From the NCBI GenBank assembly GCA_964565065.1, contig CAZMDD010000046.1, forward strand, positions 5,479 to 69,478: DNA of 64,000 bases, written 5' to 3'. This document shows, one piece after another, positions 3,889 through 63,947 of the stretch. The DNA comes from an uncultured Caldilineales bacterium. Its GTDB lineage: Bacteria > Chloroflexota > Anaerolineae > J102. The notes below the pieces were generated by a model. That model saw only the letters and a program-made list of their open reading frames with translations. It searched no databases and was not told the origin of the DNA. Both the position numbers and the translations under genes were made by a program. Positions within the stretch are counted from its first letter, which is position 1, and every line of letters begins with the position of its first letter.

Positions 3889-4807
3889 TCAGCACAACAT
3901 CCAGCACCATGGCCGCAATGAGGATGGTGAGATGCAGCATAGAGAATTTGAAAAGCCGGAAAGATTCTTTGCGTTCACCCTGATGATAAACTTGATAAGC
4001 CAATCGCATGAACTGTGCGCCGCTCAGCAGCGCAGCTATAGCATAAAGCCAACCCGAGACTCCAAATACAGTGGGCAACAGGGTAACCACAAAAAATAGC
4101 CACGAGTAGATGAGAATTTGCCGTCGGGCTTCCTCGTCACCCACAGCCACAGGCAGCATGGGCACATCCACGCGGGCATAATCCCGTTTGATGACCAATG
4201 TCAGGGCCCAGGTGTGAGGTGGTGTCCAAAAAAAGACGATGAGGAACAGCAACCAGGCGCCTAATCCCAAACTGCCAACCACCGCGGCCCAGCCCACCAG
4301 CGCCGGAATTGCGCCAGCTACGCCGCCGATGGTCACATTGTGATGCGTACGCCGTTTGAGCAGCATGGTGTAGATGAAAACATAATACAGCGTGCCCGCC
4401 AGCGAAAGCAGCGCCGAAAGCAGATTAAGCTGAGTGGTGAAGACAACAAAGGCCAGGATATTGAGCAGTACGCCAAAAATAACGGCATTGGTTGCAGGAC
4501 GAACATGCCCGGCAGGAACGGGCCGCAGTTTGGTGCGATACATGCGCTCATCGATGTCGCTATCGAGATAATGATTGATGGCATTGGCCCCGCCCGACGC
4601 AGCAATGCCCCCCACCGTGGCCCACAAAAAGGGCATCCATCCCACATGCCCGCCCCCCGCTACCAGCATAGCGCCCCACGTGACTACCAGCAATAACAAA
4701 ATAATTTTTGGCTTCATCAAGGTAAGATAAACTTTGATGAGAGGCGGGCGCTCTTGATGCACTTGTGTAGAGTCTTGCCGAGCTTTCGATGGCGTTTTTG
4801 GGGGCAT
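3875..4807 (-). CDS. ctaB: Protoheme IX farnesyltransferase (heme O synthase, UbiA superfamily)
   Basis: A polytopic membrane protein with UbiA-type Asp-rich motifs (NHYLDSDIDERM, DYARVDVPMLP) and overall CtaB/CyoE-like sequence. The start is set at the internal Met (MPPKTP...), giving about 310 aa. Confidence 0.85.
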   Translation of the reverse strand: MPPKTPSKARQDSTQVHQERPPLIKVYLTLMKPKIILLLLVVTWGAMLVAGGGHVGWMPFLWATVGGIAASGGANAINHYLDSDIDERMYRTKLRPVPAGHVRPATNAVIFGVLLNILAFVVFTTQLNLLSALLSLAGTLYYVFIYTMLLKRRTHHNVTIGGVAGAIPALVGWAAVVGSLGLGAWLLFLIVFFWTPPHTWALTLVIKRDYARVDVPMLPVAVGDEEARRQILIYSWLFFVVTLLPTVFGVSGWLYAIAALLSGAQFMRLAYQVYHQGERKESFRLFKFSMLHLTILIAAMVLDVVLIMAR

Positions 4808-57917: not shown

Positions 57918-58937
57918 ATGTCTATCCGTCAATGTCCCAATTGCGGGGCACAAGTCAGTCACAAAGCAGATGAATGCTTCATGTGCGGCTATCAATTTCA
58001 TCAGCCGCAACGTGTGCGCGTGCGCGTGCCCTGGGCCGACATCATTCTGGTGCTGTTCATTGCGGCGTTGGTGGCCATCTGGTGGCGCTGGGATGATGAG
58101 CGGCAGGTTTTGGCCCAAACTCCCTCTGCTACCCCCACGTACACGGTCACGCCCACGCAAACGCCTACCATCACGCCCACGCCTACGATTACGCCCACGC
58201 CCACCATCACACCGACACCCACGCCTGTTGTGCATACTGTGCGGCCAGGTGATACGTATCTGGGCATTGCTAATCTTTATGGCATCAAGCTGGATGATTT
58301 GCTGGCCGCCAACAATTTGAAAGTTGATGACATCATTCAGCCGGGGCAAGTCTTGCGTGTTCCGGCAGCCAGCGGCGATGTGGCCTATCCTACGCCCGAG
58401 CCTCTGAGCGGGCGTTTCAACTACGCTGTAGAATTGGGGGACACCGTAGAGGCCATTGCCATTCGTTTGCAAGTCGATCCGACAGTCATTCTTGAAAACA
58501 ACGATATTTCCGATCCAGATCATCTGCAACCGGGCCAGGTGCTCATCATTCCCATGGGATCTGAAATGGCTGATGTCGAGCCAACTATTGTGCCGACACC
58601 GCAGGGGCGACCACAGCCGCCGGTGCTCATCGGGCCCGCCAATGGCAGTGTTCACGCGGGGCCGACCGGGCCATTGCTGCGTTGGGTCTCGGCCCATTTG
58701 TTACCGGATGATATTTGTTATCAGATTAACCTGCGTTACGCAGACCCGCACTTGCCCGAAATTTCTCCCATTTGCACCAAAGCGGGCAGCTTGCGTTTGG
58801 ATAATGCCTTGCGCCCGCCCGCGGATGCCGCGTCCGCGGAAATTCGTTGGTGGCTTCGCCTGGTGCGTTTGACCCGGGATGGTGATGTTTATCCTGTCAG
58901 TCTACCCAGCGCTGTGCGACGTTTTGAGTGGCATTAA
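57918..58937 (+). CDS. Zinc-ribbon / TM / PT-linker / double LysM domain protein
   Basis: It has an N-terminal CPNCG...CFMCG zinc ribbon and a TM helix. The linker is TPTITPTPTITPTP. Two LysM motifs are present (HTVRPGDTYLGIANLYGIKLDDLLAANNL and YAVELGDTVEAIAIRLQVDPTVILENN). Confidence 0.7.
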   Translation: MSIRQCPNCGAQVSHKADECFMCGYQFHQPQRVRVRVPWADIILVLFIAALVAIWWRWDDERQVLAQTPSATPTYTVTPTQTPTITPTPTITPTPTITPTPTPVVHTVRPGDTYLGIANLYGIKLDDLLAANNLKVDDIIQPGQVLRVPAASGDVAYPTPEPLSGRFNYAVELGDTVEAIAIRLQVDPTVILENNDISDPDHLQPGQVLIIPMGSEMADVEPTIVPTPQGRPQPPVLIGPANGSVHAGPTGPLLRWVSAHLLPDDICYQINLRYADPHLPEISPICTKAGSLRLDNALRPPADAASAEIRWWLRLVRLTRDGDVYPVSLPSAVRRFEWH

Positions 58938-59242
58938 ACTTTGGCAGTGGGTATTTTGTCTGAGGGGAATTGTTCGCAGTTGGGGGGGCGGGCGTAGACG
59001 CCGGGAAGCATTTACATAAACGTTCAGTGGGCAGCTATGAAGCTTTTTCGCACAGCGAGTCATTCTGGTTCTTTCGGATTTCAGGGGGTCTGGCGCTGTC
59101 AAGCCGCCGGATCACGGATCCGGCTCAAGAGCGGGGGCTCCCAGGGCGGATTCGCAATCCGCCCGGCCTATCACTCCTGAAACCCAGTTGAGCCAAAAAG
59201 CACTCAAATGACCGGGATTGGGCAAGAGCAGCAAAATTCAAT

Positions 59243-59296
59243 AGATTTCTCCATAACTTCTCCACAATTTCTCCCGAATTCCTCCAAGATTCTCCT
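59243..59296 (+). repeat. Five direct repeats of (A)TTTCTCC / TTCCTCC at a regular 11-bp spacing
   Basis: TTCTCC occurs at 59247, 59258, 59269, 59279 (as TTCCTCC) and 59290. The array lies 83 bp upstream of the DUF2202 gene start. Confidence 0.5.
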
Positions 59297-59378
59297 TTAT
59301 ACTAAAGGCAGCGTTAAGGATGACCTTAGCGATTCGCAATCCAACCATTTACGCCTACGATTTACGGAGGATCCTATA

Positions 59379-60290
59379 ATGAAACCTTTTAAAACTTTTA
59401 TCGCCACACTTTCAGTTGGGGCATTGACACTCATCCTGGCAGCCTGCGGAACGCCCGTTTCGGCTGACGATGTTACATCGATGGTCAATTCGGCGCCCGT
59501 TGCACAACCTACGGTTAAGGCCAATGTCAGCAATACGCCGGCAGCGTTGCCATCGGGCAGTGGTTATGGCCAGCAGGGCAATGGCCGCGGGGCCGCACAG
59601 CAGGCTCAGGGCGGGCAGTTGCCCTTGGGCACCAATCTGCCGGCAGCAGGAACGGTCGATGATCAGGAAATCGCCGACTTGCTGCAAATGCGTGAGGAAG
59701 AAAAACTGGCCCGGGATGTTTATATCACTCTGGGCGAACAGTGGAATCTTGCCGTTCATACCAACATTAGCCGCTCTGAGCAGCAACACATGGATGCCAT
59801 CGGTTTTTTGCTGGAACGCTACGGCATTGCCGATCCGGTGGGTGATAACCCGGTGGGGGTTTTTACCAATTCCGATTTGCAAGCGCTTTACGACCAGCTC
59901 GTAGCGCAAGGTCGTCAATCCATGGCAGAATCGCTGAAAGTGGGCGCGACGATCGAGGATGTTGATATTTATGACTTGCAGAAGGCGCTCGCGAACACCG
60001 ACAACGCAGATATTCAAGAGGTTTATCGCAGCTTGATGGCTGGTTCTGAGAATCACATGCGAGCCTTTGCGGGGACGCTGATTCAACAGACCGGCGAAAC
60101 CTATACACCACAATACATTGAGCAATCTACTTTTGATGCCATCATGGCAGCCAGCAATAGTCACGGTCATGGTGGCTATGGCCAGGGCCGCCAAGGTCAG
60201 GGGGGGCAGGGCCAGGGTGGCTATGGTCAGGGCAAAGGTGGACGTGGCGGTCAGCGCGGTCAATCCTATAATCTTGCTCCCAACAGCTAA
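59379..60290 (+). CDS. DUF2202 (ferritin-like superfamily) lipoprotein with a Gly/Gln-rich C-terminal tail
   Basis: It has a lipobox (LILAACG), a DUF2202 signature (LLQMREEEKLARDVYITL...SEQQHMDA) and a tail GHGGYGQGRQGQGGQGQGGYGQGKGGRGG. Its RBS is GGAGGA. Confidence 0.6.
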   Translation: MKPFKTFIATLSVGALTLILAACGTPVSADDVTSMVNSAPVAQPTVKANVSNTPAALPSGSGYGQQGNGRGAAQQAQGGQLPLGTNLPAAGTVDDQEIADLLQMREEEKLARDVYITLGEQWNLAVHTNISRSEQQHMDAIGFLLERYGIADPVGDNPVGVFTNSDLQALYDQLVAQGRQSMAESLKVGATIEDVDIYDLQKALANTDNADIQEVYRSLMAGSENHMRAFAGTLIQQTGETYTPQYIEQSTFDAIMAASNSHGHGGYGQGRQGQGGQGQGGYGQGKGGRGGQRGQSYNLAPNS

Positions 60291-60428
60291 CGCTCATCTT
60301 TTCATTCAGTATCACCCATGATCCATCGGGCCGGAAAGCTAATTTTCGACCCGATGGTTTTATCTGAACGAAGCCTCTCTTCCTTTTCTCCGGACCTTGA
60401 GGGCATAAGATTGGAAGGAGATTGTATT

Positions 60429-60571
60429 GGTTACTACTAAGGTCGCCCGGCTAGAAACCACGAAGACACGAAGCCACAAAGGCACGAAGAAAAGAAAAAG
60501 CTTTGAAATGCTTGATGTTCTTGGTGTCTTTGCGCCTTTGTGGTGATTGAAGTCGGGGACGTTAGTCGTTA
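60429..60571 (-). mobile_element. MITE copy 8 (inverted orientation) with a perfect 8-bp target-site duplication (TTGTATTG)
   Basis: GTTACTACTAAGG...GTTAGTCGTTAC. TTGTATTG sits at 60421-60428 and 60572-60579. Confidence 0.8.
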
Positions 60572-60596
60572 CTTGTATTGCACAAAGGAGCAAGCC

Positions 60597-61937
60597 ATGA
60601 CTCGAATGGATTCAAAACCTCAATCAAGAACATCGCCGACAGTTTCTCGACAGGTTGAGCGCAATCGCATGAAGGCGGTGATGAATAATAGCATCTTGCA
60701 TTTGCATCCCACCCGCGTGCCCGCCTCGGCCCTTGCTTTCACCTACACCTGGGGCTTGGGAGGTCTTTCGGCTCTGCTGGTGATGATTCTTGGCAGCACC
60801 GGCATCTTGCTCATGTTTCGCTACGATGCCAGCATCGAACGGGCCTATACCAGTATTCAGTATTTAGAAACCCAGGTGATGTTCGGTTCGATGCTGCGTT
60901 CGGCGCATCATTGGTCTGGCAATCTTCTTGTTATCACTGTCTTTTTGCACATGCTGCGGGTGTTTCTGACAGGTAGCTATAAAAAGGGACGCACCACTAA
61001 TTGGATTGTCGGTATTTTGTTGCTGCTTATGGTCATTGGCTTTAATTTTACAGGTTATCTGCTGCCATGGGATCAACTGGCTTATTGGGCTGTTACGGTG
61101 GCCACCAGTTTGCTGGGATATGTTCCTGTGCTGGGGCGTATGATCAGTAATTTTTTGCTGGGCGGGCCAGAGGTTGGGCAGGCGACGTTGCGTAATTTTT
61201 ATGCCATTCACGTTTCGGTGTTGCCTGCAGTGCTGTTGTTTTTGATGGCGTATCATTTTTGGCGTATTCGCAAGGATGGTGATATTTCGCAGCCCGAGCG
61301 TGTTGATAAAACGCCCAAACTTACAACAATCCCTTATCTGGTGCAGATGGAGCTGGCCGCGGCGGTCATTCTTGTTGCGGTGGTTTGTTTTTGGGCGATG
61401 GCTGTGCCCGCACCTTTGGAGGCGCTTGCTAATCCGGCACATCCGCCCAACCCGGCCAAGGCTGCCTGGTATTTTTTGGGATTGCAGGAGCTTTTGTTGC
61501 ATATGCACCCGCTGGCTGCGCTTATGCTGCCTACTTTTATTCTGTTGGCTCTGGCGTCGATTCCTTTTTGGGATAACCAGTCGGACAGTGATATTGGCTT
61601 GTATTTTCGCTCGGAGGTGGGGAAGCAGGTTGCAGGCCTTGCGGTGTTGCTAGGGCTTTTGTTGCCTCCGATTCTGGTCTTGTTGGATGAGTTTTGGATT
61701 GATTTGCCCGCCTGGTTGCCCATGTTGTCTACCATCATCTCTAACGGGATTATTCCGGTACTGTTTACGCTGGGAGGACTGGCGCTCATTTATGTGGTTT
61801 TTCGTCGTCGGTATAAGGCCAATCGCAGCGAGGCAACGTTGGGATTGTTTCTCTTTTTGTTCATCAGCCTTGTTGTCCTTACGTTCACCGGGATATATTT
61901 TCGTGGCCCCAATATGGCTTTGATTTGGCCATTTTAA
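60597..61937 (+). CDS. Cytochrome b of a cytochrome bc-type complex (fused b6 / subunit IV-like)
   Basis: It has heme-ligand His in HHWSGNLLVITVFLHMLRVF, the PWDQ quinol-site motif (GYLLPWDQLAYWA) and 8 or more TM helices. The start is the ATG at 60597 after AAAGGAG. Confidence 0.85.
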   Translation: MTRMDSKPQSRTSPTVSRQVERNRMKAVMNNSILHLHPTRVPASALAFTYTWGLGGLSALLVMILGSTGILLMFRYDASIERAYTSIQYLETQVMFGSMLRSAHHWSGNLLVITVFLHMLRVFLTGSYKKGRTTNWIVGILLLLMVIGFNFTGYLLPWDQLAYWAVTVATSLLGYVPVLGRMISNFLLGGPEVGQATLRNFYAIHVSVLPAVLLFLMAYHFWRIRKDGDISQPERVDKTPKLTTIPYLVQMELAAAVILVAVVCFWAMAVPAPLEALANPAHPPNPAKAAWYFLGLQELLLHMHPLAALMLPTFILLALASIPFWDNQSDSDIGLYFRSEVGKQVAGLAVLLGLLLPPILVLLDEFWIDLPAWLPMLSTIISNGIIPVLFTLGGLALIYVVFRRRYKANRSEATLGLFLFLFISLVVLTFTGIYFRGPNMALIWPF

Positions 61938-61957
61938 TCATTGCCTGGAGTTTTATC

Positions 61958-62465
61958 AATGTCGCAATTTATGATTCAGGATTCTTCGAATAGCGCTAAA
62001 ATGAGTCGTCGTAATTTTCTCAAACTAGGAGCTGCTGCTCTAGGAGCATTGGCTGTGCTCGAGATAACTGCGGCCGGGGTGGTTTTTCTGGAGCCACGCA
62101 GTCTGGAGGGTGAATTCGGTGGTGTGGTCACTGCGGGCCCGACCGAAAGTTTTCCTCCTGCCAGCATTACCGAGTTTCCGGCAGGGCGGTTCTTTCTTAT
62201 CCGGGCTGAAGATGGCGGTTTTTTGGCGGTTTACCGGCGTTGTACCCATCTGGGATGTTCGGTGAGCTGGGAGCCGAGTCAGAATCAGTTTGTATGTCCT
62301 TGTCACGGTTCTCACTTTGATGATGTTGGCAATGTGGTCAATCCTCCAGCTCCGCGGGCGCTGGATACGTTCAATATCACTATCGCTGAAGGTGTGGTTC
62401 GTGTCGACACAGCCAAACCCCGCACGCGAGATGAGTTTGAAGCTTCTCAATTAGTTTACGCATAA
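61958..62465 (+). CDS. Rieske [2Fe-2S] iron-sulfur protein with a twin-arginine signal
   Basis: It has a Tat motif (SRRNFLKLGAAALGA) and Rieske boxes CTHLGC and CPCHGS. Confidence 0.8.
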
Positions 62466-62474
62466 GGAATCATC

Positions 62475-63947
62475 ATGGACAAAAAGTATCTTTTAATGAT
62501 TTTTGTCGGCTTGCTGTTTTTGGTGGTGGCATTGCCTGTCTATGCTTTGCATGAGCCTGAGCGCATGGCCGCGGCCCAGCAGTCATTGCGCGAGACCTTT
62601 GTTGCAGATGGTGCGGTCATGTATGTTGATAATTGTTCGCTGTGTCATGGTGTGGATGGTTCGGGCATTGGGGCTTATCCTGCGTTGGATGCCGAGGCGA
62701 TTCGCAATGCTGAGTATGATTTTTTGTATAAAACGATTGCCCGCGGGCGCTATAATACAGCCATGGCCGCTTGGCACGAGGAGGATAACGGGCCATTCAA
62801 CAGCTATCAGGTGCAAGAGATGGTGGCCTTTTTGCGCTATGTGGATTGGGGGCAGGTGGCAGAGTTGGCTGCTCAGCAGGGGGTGATTCCACCAGCCATG
62901 CCTGTGCCCGATGTGCCCGAGGCTTTATTGGCGCAAGTGGCCGCGCTCGGGCCCGATGGCAATGTCTGGGCCAGCGGCATGGTTACCTATGCCAAAAATT
63001 GCACCACTTGTCATGGTGTCAATGGCGAGGGCACTGATTTGGCGCCACCCTTGGCAACTGATGCCATTCGGGCAACCCAGGCCGGGGAACTGCGCCGCGT
63101 TATCAGCGAGGGTGTGCCTGGAACGATGATGCCTTCCTGGAATGCCAAGTTGGATGAAAGTGCCATCGATGAGCTGGTCTTGTTCATCAGTAATTGGGAT
63201 AAAATTGCCGAGGCAGGCATCGAATTGACGCATCCTGCCCCCATTCATATCGATCCCCGTAATCCCCAAGAGATGTGGGCGTTGGGTAAGAGTCTTTATG
63301 CCAATGCCTGCGCTGCCTGTCATGGCACCGAAGGCGAAGGTGGAAGCGGTCCTGCTCTGAATAGCTTGCAAATTCTCAGCCGCCATGATGATGCCACCCT
63401 GGCCCAAACAATCATCTACGGCCCGCGCCGTCCTTCCAGCATCATGCCCCCCTTTGGCGACCGTTTGACTTCGGTAGAAGTAGATGCACTGGTGCGGTTT
63501 GTGCGTTCGTGGGAAGCCACAGCTACCTGGGTCGAGAATCCGCGCGGCACTGAACAAGGTGGTGGCGGGCCTCCCTGGCTGCGAGCCACGCCCGACCCCA
63601 AAAATCCCATTCAGCCTGGTGAAGGTGGTGGCCCGCCCGCGGGTATGGGCCCCGAAGCAGATTGGCAACGTCCCACAGGTCCCACCCTGCACTTCAGCGG
63701 ACAGGTTATCGATGTGATGGAAAATCAACTTGTTTTCAGTGACCGGCAGGGCACAAAGCACAAAGCCATGCTGGGCCCATCCTGGTGGTGGGCCGAAAAC
63801 GGCATCGAGTTGCAAGTAGGTGATGCCATCGAGCTGGAAGGATTTGAGGGCGTTGACCAGATGGAAGTCGTCTGGATCAGAAATTTGCGCACCAACGCCC
63901 GCATCGACCTGCGCACGCCCAGCGGCATGCCCGTGTGGACAGGTTAG
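62475..63947 (+). CDS. Membrane-anchored c-type cytochrome with three class-I heme-binding domains plus a C-terminal non-heme domain
   Basis: It has three CxxCH sites (CSLCHG, CTTCHG, CAACHG), each followed by a Met-containing segment, and an N-terminal TM anchor. Confidence 0.8.
   Translation: MDKKYLLMIFVGLLFLVVALPVYALHEPERMAAAQQSLRETFVADGAVMYVDNCSLCHGVDGSGIGAYPALDAEAIRNAEYDFLYKTIARGRYNTAMAAWHEEDNGPFNSYQVQEMVAFLRYVDWGQVAELAAQQGVIPPAMPVPDVPEALLAQVAALGPDGNVWASGMVTYAKNCTTCHGVNGEGTDLAPPLATDAIRATQAGELRRVISEGVPGTMMPSWNAKLDESAIDELVLFISNWDKIAEAGIELTHPAPIHIDPRNPQEMWALGKSLYANACAACHGTEGEGGSGPALNSLQILSRHDDATLAQTIIYGPRRPSSIMPPFGDRLTSVEVDALVRFVRSWEATATWVENPRGTEQGGGGPPWLRATPDPKNPIQPGEGGGPPAGMGPEADWQRPTGPTLHFSGQVIDVMENQLVFSDRQGTKHKAMLGPSWWWAENGIELQVGDAIELEGFEGVDQMEVVWIRNLRTNARIDLRTPSGMPVWTG

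Follow-up and report, generated by a model that had tools for sequence, protein, structure and literature searches.

What kind of element is a five-fold run of CT-rich hexamers, spaced by about one turn of the DNA helix, in front of a DUF2202 lipoprotein gene of an uncultured Caldilineales bacterium, and which protein would read it? Promoter and regulon structure is almost unexplored in the Chloroflexi, and the array supplies a precise operator, with its units, its register and a putative -10 hexamer, as well as a candidate regulator family and a first candidate regulon that comprises DUF2202, MacAB-type efflux and self-regulation. It also offers a way into the function of DUF2202, a widespread but uncharacterised domain, for which we found no experimental characterisation in the literature searched, the sole mention being that of a ferritin-like protein in ferrosome gene clusters.

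An earlier note on this DNA had compared the repeats with iterons and with the binding arrays of multimeric response regulators, and had also raised the possibility of a translational control element that pairs with the ribosome-binding site. In this study, we report an analysis of the array in the window (the whole 64-kb stretch of DNA that was analysed), of the orthologous loci in related genomes, and of other genes that are preceded by the same element.

Structure and rarity of the repeat array

The array and the gene downstream of it comprise the following features.

59246 to 59256, plus strand: unit 1, TTTCTCCATAA, which fits the published BaeR box TCTNCANAA exactly and is found as the identical 11-mer in the E. 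coli spy site
59257 to 59267, plus strand: unit 2, CTTCTCCACAA, likewise an exact match to TCTNCANAA
59268 to 59278, plus strand: unit 3, TTTCTCCCGAA, a weaker unit, predicted to lie at about -42 to -32, resembling the E. coli mdtA unit TTTCTCCCTTA
59279 to 59289, plus strand: unit 4, TTCCTCCAAGA, the promoter-proximal unit, predicted to lie at about -31 to -21, resembling the E. coli mdtA unit TTCCTCCATTT
59290 to 59297, plus strand: the so-called fifth unit, TTCTCCTT, whose CT-rich copy (59290-59295) lies in the promoter spacer at a 10-bp offset
59298 to 59303, plus strand: putative -10 hexamer, TATACT, at the same offset as in the other array promoters
59312 to 59331, plus strand: small stem-loop at the predicted 5' end of the mRNA, CGUUAAGG-AUGA-CCUUAGCG, contained in the minimum-energy fold
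59366 to 59371, plus strand: Shine-Dalgarno sequence GGAGGA, its GGAG invariant in six orthologues at 7-8 nt before the ATG
59379 to 60290, plus strand: DUF2202 (ferritin-like) lipoprotein gene with G/Q-rich tails (Pfam PF09968, 1.3e-56)

Read directly from the sequence, the CTCC cores begin at 59249, 59260, 59271, 59282 and 59292, at successive spacings of 11, 11, 11 and 10 bp, with exact TTCTCC hexamers at 59247, 59258, 59269 and 59290 and a TCCTCC hexamer at 59280. The letters of 59243-59296 agree with those quoted earlier, and Tandem Repeats Finder reports a period of 11 over 59245-59286. Four head-to-tail 11-bp units, spanning 59246-59289, share the consensus nTyCTCCAyAA and fit the format of direct-repeat operators, with a conserved core of 6-7 bp, an A/T-rich spacer and a period of 10-11 bp. 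Units 1 and 2 together form a high-scoring distal box, with a matrix pair score of 33.1.

This arrangement is without parallel in the window. The pattern TTCTCCN5TTCTCC, with at most one mismatch allowed, has three overlapping matches in the 64 kb, all inside the array, against 0.23 expected. The CTCC chain is the sole 4-mer chain with at least four copies at 10-11 bp spacing, and Markov simulations (n=200) yielded a mean of 0.1 chains of at least four copies and none of at least five. Paired units were likewise found by the unit matrix only in the array, at a null rate of 0.1 per 64 kb. The coordinates, the spacing and the simulations confirm the earlier observation of five CT-rich copies at 10-11 bp upstream of DUF2202.

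Conservation upstream of DUF2202 orthologues

A scan of the DUF2202 protein against one genome per species identified seven close relatives, all in Anaerolineae and Caldilineales metagenome-assembled genomes, at 59-72% identity. The array is present upstream of DUF2202 in six of the seven (loci L001-L004, L006 and L007), with different genes further upstream, and three further array-bearing DUF2202 loci (L147, L197 and L206) came from metagenome and context look-ups. Loss of the array from orthologous upstream regions, which the earlier note had named as an outcome that would count against it, was looked for; the array is kept in nine of the ten related Chloroflexi loci, whose upstream neighbours differ. 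L005, the sole orthologue that lacks a proper array, is also the sole one flanked by a differing regulator, with the recognition helix RTIDVHIRNLRAKI.

In the information profile, unit 1 is conserved in 11 aligned promoters and marks where conservation starts, and the highest information falls on the columns of the CTCCA cores rather than on those of the A/T-rich spacers. Four units are kept in the relatives and the fifth copy is lineage-specific, being retained only in the closest relatives (L001, L002, L147 and partly L191) and replaced by unrelated sequence in L004, L006, L007, L100, L159 and L206. The claim of five units thus stands as far as the number of copies is concerned, but not as a conserved number of units, and the fifth copy is probably not a core binding unit. 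The array is a real, conserved and non-random element.

Several of these loci have peculiarities of their own. In L005 (232-2377), the DUF2202 protein has a long His/Gly-rich tail, and its gene is followed by that of an LTQEQAD-repeat protein with a weak DUF2680 match and by the different OmpR-type regulator. L147 contains three tandem DUF2202 genes, with the array only at the last one. Two convergent genes of L001 are separated by a long, imperfect inverted structure (4600-4690), in which a run of four GACGAA copies precedes one of four TTCGTC copies, the period being 10 bp; the TTCGTC run, considered as a second array, is one half of this structure and was set aside as unrelated.

A fixed promoter register

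A TAnACT hexamer stands exactly 12 nt beyond the proximal CTCC in each of the 12 array promoters. A search with the unit matrix alone, in which the hexamer was not used, found five more promoters.

L205, L206 and L208: one promoter each, upstream of DUF2202
L208 and L209: one promoter each, upstream of the regulator gene

All five have a TAnnnT hexamer at the identical offset (TACAGT, TAGAAT, TATTCT, TAAGCT and TATCCT), and the CTCC-12 nt-TAnnnT register holds in 17 of 17 promoters examined, the chance of a TAnnnT at any one position being about 1/64. On the strength of this fixed register we read TATACT at 59298-59303, 2 nt beyond the end of the array, as the putative -10 element and place the transcription start near 59310. 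Units 3-4 would then lie at about -42 to -21 and units 1-2 at about -64 to -43, with unit 4 in the place of a -35 element. No TTGACA-like -35 hexamer was found at the DUF2202 promoter, and a scan of 58800-59500 for consensus sigma-70 promoters and terminators returned nothing, as is expected for an activator-dependent promoter. By analogy with known systems, the best reading of this layout is a class-II, activator-dependent promoter of the pho-box-like kind.

Downstream of the predicted start, the GGAGGA ribosome-binding site described earlier is present, but the distance to the ATG at 59379 is 13 nt from its start and 7 nt from its end, instead of 15 nt. The small stem-loop at 59312-59331 may serve as an mRNA-stabilising 5' hairpin; an equivalent hairpin (GGATGA...TCATCC) occurs in the orthologues, with a few compensatory changes and weak comparative support. 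The leader as a whole has a fold z-score of -0.9, and folding it with and without the array gave no significant structure. The encoded protein begins with what reads, by eye, as a lipoprotein signal peptide (MKPF...LILAAC/G), and its tails are rich in G, Q and H.

Reuse of the array at other genes

An exact-pattern scan of metagenome contigs returned 120 matches, mostly eukaryote-like satellites or members of a GC-rich soil class. Among the matches, the same array with the same -10 register precedes genes other than DUF2202 at three loci. In L100 and L159 it stands before the gene of an HlyD-family adaptor followed by that of a MacB-type ATPase, and in L191 before genes for a small membrane protein, an HlyD adaptor, an ABC ATPase and a MacB/FtsX permease. 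Two-unit boxes in the standard register are found upstream of the regulator's own gene, clearly in L208 and more weakly in L209, and two-unit versions also occur upstream of DUF2202 genes in relatives. The recurrence of the same array and -10 hexamer at other genes therefore marks the array as the site of a trans-acting factor with a regulon, rather than a peculiarity of one gene. In our proposal, MacAB-type efflux operons are further targets of this circuit, as are its own regulator genes in some genomes. The boxes in L208 and L209 suggest such autoregulation; across all eight regulator genes examined, no clear autoregulatory box was found beyond that of L208, the one in L209 being weak.

The GC-rich class from soil metagenomes consists of four-fold GGTCTCCA(C/T) arrays at 11-bp spacing (GGTCTCCAC/T, four copies) with varied downstream genes, and is represented by L085, L089, L090, L103, L104, L106, L131, L139, L142-L144, L162, L163 and L196. 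These arrays have no -10 hexamer in the Chloroflexi register and were set aside as a distinct, possibly related class; they may serve related regulators of another phylum as operators.

The candidate regulator and its kinase

No OmpR-type regulator was found by tblastn in the 64-kb window, nor in the 10 kb past its right end, as covered by another assembly of the same organism. The regulator would thus be encoded elsewhere in the source genome, and its predicted link to the array comes from the relatives. In L007, two genes on the strand of the array immediately precede it, one for an OmpR-family regulator and one for a HAMP-HisKA kinase; the order there is regulator-kinase-array-DUF2202, and in L205 it is DUF2202-regulator-kinase. 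Such a regulator-kinase pair is located within 4 kb of DUF2202 in four of the eight contexts examined (L007, L205, L206 and L208). The other four (L201, L203/L204, L207 and L209) have no DUF2202 gene and, apart from the weak box in L209, no box either.

Homologues of the L007 regulator, more than 100 in a protein search, were found at 66-100% identity in Anaerolineae, Caldilineales and other Chloroflexota, and 115 of 120 family members share the recognition helix RT[IV]DSH[IV]KNLR[KR]K[LI]. In an alignment to solved structures, the helix of the regulator, RTIDSHIKNLRKKL, is near-identical to that of E. coli BaeR (4b09), RTIDSHIKNLRRKL, with 13 of 14 residues the same and 14 of 14 in some family members. 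The corresponding helices of MtrA (RLVNVHVQRLRAKV) and RegX3 (KTLDVHVKRLRSKI) both differ from that of the family; the whole DNA-binding domain is about as close to RegX3 as to BaeR. The best NCBIfam models for the L007 kinase are BaeS_SmeS and BaeS (3.9e-77), matched over the full length. Both partners score under the NCBIfam cut-offs (210 against 380 for BaeR, and 260 against 500 for BaeS_SmeS), as the regulator does for every NCBIfam equivalog, so that we describe the pair as BaeSR-like rather than as orthologous to BaeSR. Taken together, the gene contexts and the helix point to the Chloroflexi regulator-kinase pair exemplified by L007 80-2160 as most likely the one that acts on the array.

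The 'PhoP' labels that JGI attaches to this regulator family are generic. Phosphoesterase genes are found near the regulator in L203 and L209, and these neighbourhoods may reflect a phosphate-related signal. A Pho-regulon identity of the regulator was considered and rejected: there are no pst genes nearby, and both the box and the helix match BaeR, not PhoB.

Comparison with BaeR boxes

Two consensus sequences with a CTNCA core, TTTTTCTCCATDATTGGC and TCTNCANAA, have been published for BaeR (PMC3799227). Units 1 and 2 of the window (TCTCCATAA and TCTCCACAA) fit TCTNCANAA exactly and units 3-4 fit it in part. Conversely, a unit matrix built from Chloroflexi sequences only has its top matches in the E. 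coli spy and mdtA promoters at the BaeR sites. In E. coli K-12, the spy promoter carries ACTCTCCATCA and TTTCTCCATAA, the latter being the sequence of window unit 1, at a distance of 22 bp, and the mdtA promoter carries TTCCTCCATTT and TTTCTCCCTTA, 10 bp apart.

The likeness to the BaeR boxes of the E. coli and Salmonella BaeSR systems (mdtA, spy and acrD) accordingly covers the core sequence and the arrangement as direct repeats with a 10-11 bp period upstream of TAnAnT. The proximal CTCC lies 13 nt before TACACT at mdtA, and at spy the corresponding distance is 23 nt, one turn more. The likeness extends to the near-identical recognition helix of the linked regulator and to targets that include efflux-pump adaptor genes and an extracytoplasmic protein. 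The systems differ in that BaeSR occurs in Proteobacteria and the window array in Chloroflexi, in that BaeR boxes consist of two or three units and the Chloroflexi array of four in register, and in that BaeSR acts on Spy and RND pumps whereas the array precedes DUF2202 and MacAB-type ABC efflux genes. Judged by these comparisons, the array should work in the manner of a BaeR box and, as far as shared specificity goes, is probably a BaeR box itself, which suggests that BaeR-type DNA specificity is conserved across phyla.

Proposed mechanism and alternative explanations

The comparative evidence supports the earlier suggestion of a multimeric response-regulator array on one face of the helix. 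We consider it likely that the array is an operator of the OmpR/PhoB response-regulator family, of the class-II, pho-box-like activator type, and that its regulator is most likely BaeR-like. So understood, it is a known kind of control element, an OmpR/PhoB direct-repeat operator of BaeR-box type, in a little-studied phylum. The pho boxes bound by PhoB at promoters of the E. coli pstS type consist of tandem 11-bp units, in each of which 7 bp form the conserved core and 4 bp an A/T-rich spacer; a pair of boxes amounts to four units, the proximal box replaces the -35 element and ends about 10 bp upstream of the -10 element, and PhoB activates through contact with sigma region 4. The array has the same architecture, but its core is TCTCCAy as against the CTGTCAT of the pho box, and no pst or pho genes are near it. 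Operators of ArcA and OmpR have two to five direct repeats at 11 bp centre to centre, and their graded strong and weak units make occupancy cooperative and concentration-dependent. Repeated units at 11 bp and graded strength are what the array shares with them, whereas the core sequences and physiological roles differ, and ArcA and OmpR often act as repressors.

In the proposed mechanism, the phosphorylated winged-helix regulator would bind head-to-tail, with two dimers on one face of the DNA occupying the four units. The distal pair (units 1-2), which fits the consensus best, would probably fill first and nucleate binding, and the weaker proximal pair (units 3-4) would then fill cooperatively, covering about -42 to -21 and replacing the -35 element. 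Placed there, the regulator would behave like PhoB on a pho box, bringing RNA polymerase to the TATACT promoter and so switching on the DUF2202 lipoprotein gene. The steps after binding are modelled on PhoB and OmpR, and both physical binding and activation, as opposed to repression, are predictions of the model. The signal, by analogy with BaeSR, would be envelope, metal or toxic-compound stress. BaeSR-like systems are described as responding to envelope-damaging compounds and metals (PMC3160322), and efflux and extracytoplasmic ferritin-like targets would fit an envelope or metal signal.

Other readings of the array have to be weighed against an activator operator. A regulator of the same kind could act as a repressor that, bound over the -35 region and the spacer (units 3-5, down to about -15), blocks RNA polymerase, so that the gene is derepressed when the protein is unphosphorylated. 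The array does abut the -10 hexamer, and the fifth copy in the window (59290-59295) falls inside the promoter spacer, reaching about -15. However, half of the promoters do not keep this spacer copy, a -35-like hexamer that would permit initiation independently of the regulator is missing, and units 3-4, predicted at about -42 to -21, occupy the classical position of a pho-box activator. At E. coli mdtA, the BaeR sites lie at a near-equal offset, 13 nt before TACACT, and are reported to be positively regulated (PMC3799227), and on balance we regard repression as unlikely. It is very unlikely that the array is an intrinsically curved promoter-upstream element, in which A/T tracts every 11 bp bend the DNA with no dedicated protein. 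The spacers (AAAA, AATT) are indeed all A/T-rich and recur about once per helical turn, but the conserved columns are the CTCCA cores and not these spacers, the core matches a known protein-recognition sequence, and two-unit versions, too short for an appreciable bend, are used elsewhere in the same register. Curvature may nevertheless contribute alongside the binding of a regulator.

The earlier proposal that the array is transcribed, and that its UUCUCC/CCUCC units act as anti-Shine-Dalgarno sequences sequestering the GGAGGA site, draws on the complementarity of CTCC to GGAG and on the minimum-energy fold of 59240-59400, in which unit 1 pairs with the ribosome-binding site. This fold is no better than those of shuffled sequences (z -1.31, with 21 of 200 shuffles as good) and accounts for 1% of the ensemble. 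Since it ends 2 nt before the conserved -10 hexamer, upstream of the predicted start, the array should not be in the mRNA. Its distance to the ribosome-binding site varies, with an insertion of about 230 bp between the two in L007, whereas that to the -10 hexamer is invariant, and the same array precedes unrelated genes as well as a regulator gene, all of which makes this form of control highly improbable. The iteron geometry also suggested earlier fares worst, together with its variant of a DnaA-box cluster that serves replication or titrates DnaA. Low-affinity DnaA sites in oriC are arrayed at 11 bp, and some units resemble a DnaA box (TTCTCCACA compared with TTATCCACA). Every unit, however, departs from TTWTNCACA at one position at least, with units 3-4 lacking the CACA end, and the 11-bp units contrast with typical iteron lengths of 17-22 bp, which in plasmids accompany a rep gene and an A/T-rich unwinding element. 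The neighbours are genes for LysM, DUF2202 and cytochrome b/Rieske proteins, none of them a replication gene, and the array goes along with a chromosomal gene and is locked to the -10 hexamer at several unrelated genes; a role in replication is thus hardly credible.

DUF2202 neighbourhoods and a wider circuit

Returning to the activator operator, a broader scenario, which we put forward tentatively and hold to be possible rather than probable, is that a BaeSR-type circuit has kept its recognition helix and its box from Proteobacteria to Chloroflexi, there controlling DUF2202 and MacAB-type efflux, and that DUF2202, governed by two-component systems, is a widespread effector in envelope, metal or redox stress. 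If this is true, the function of DUF2202 becomes directly testable.

DUF2202 is syntenic with a cluster of cytochrome b, Rieske and c-type cytochrome genes both in the window (59379-63947) and in the distant relative L208 (12154-17566), which gives a hint that DUF2202 is connected with a bc-type respiratory complex. In L208, the BaeR-like regulator-kinase pair adjoins this DUF2202/cytochrome cluster.

Outside the Chloroflexi, DUF2202 genes of Thiobacillus, Chromatiaceae, Thiothrix and Bacteroidales are located within 3 kb of OmpR-family regulators of other subtypes, in 15 of 80 DUF2202 loci. Short direct repeats of different sequence are found nearby in those loci (TGACAC in three copies and GAAAC in three copies at 10 bp; L031 2737-2766, and about 2232-2335 in L060, L062, L063 and L070). 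Two-component control of DUF2202 may, to judge from these gene neighbourhoods, be general.

Neighbouring structured elements

The two GC hairpins that the earlier note had placed in the same spacer (59107-59123 and 59144-59164) are present, but they are part of a separate element. This is a strongly folding multi-hairpin element at 59066-59195, with a minimum free energy of -67 kcal/mol and a z-score of -3.95. Its ends resemble inverted repeats (GGATTTCAGGGGG ... CCTGAAAyCC ... GTTGAGCC) and its core, GGATTCGCAATCC, is palindromic; the closing stem and the palindromic core recur upstream of the L003 orthologue (L003 2566-2715, z -5.8). An Rfam scan of 58800-59500 at a permissive E-value gave chance-level matches only. 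Candidates for its identity are a small mobile or repetitive element and an uncharacterised RNA.

The duplicated 12-mer reported earlier, GATTCGCAATCC, does occur twice, but it lies outside the array and belongs to this different element, with one copy at 59149-59160 within the structured element and the other at 59331-59342 in the DUF2202 leader. The leader copy is specific to the window and not conserved in the orthologues.

The insertion of about 230 bp in L007 (2684-2917) separates the -10 hexamer of DUF2202 from its ribosome-binding site and ends in 18-nt inverted repeats (TAGAGCCTGTTATGAACT and AGTGCATAACAGCTTCTA); it looks like a MITE. A similar end, GAGTCTGTTATGAACTT, is found upstream of the L207 regulator gene.
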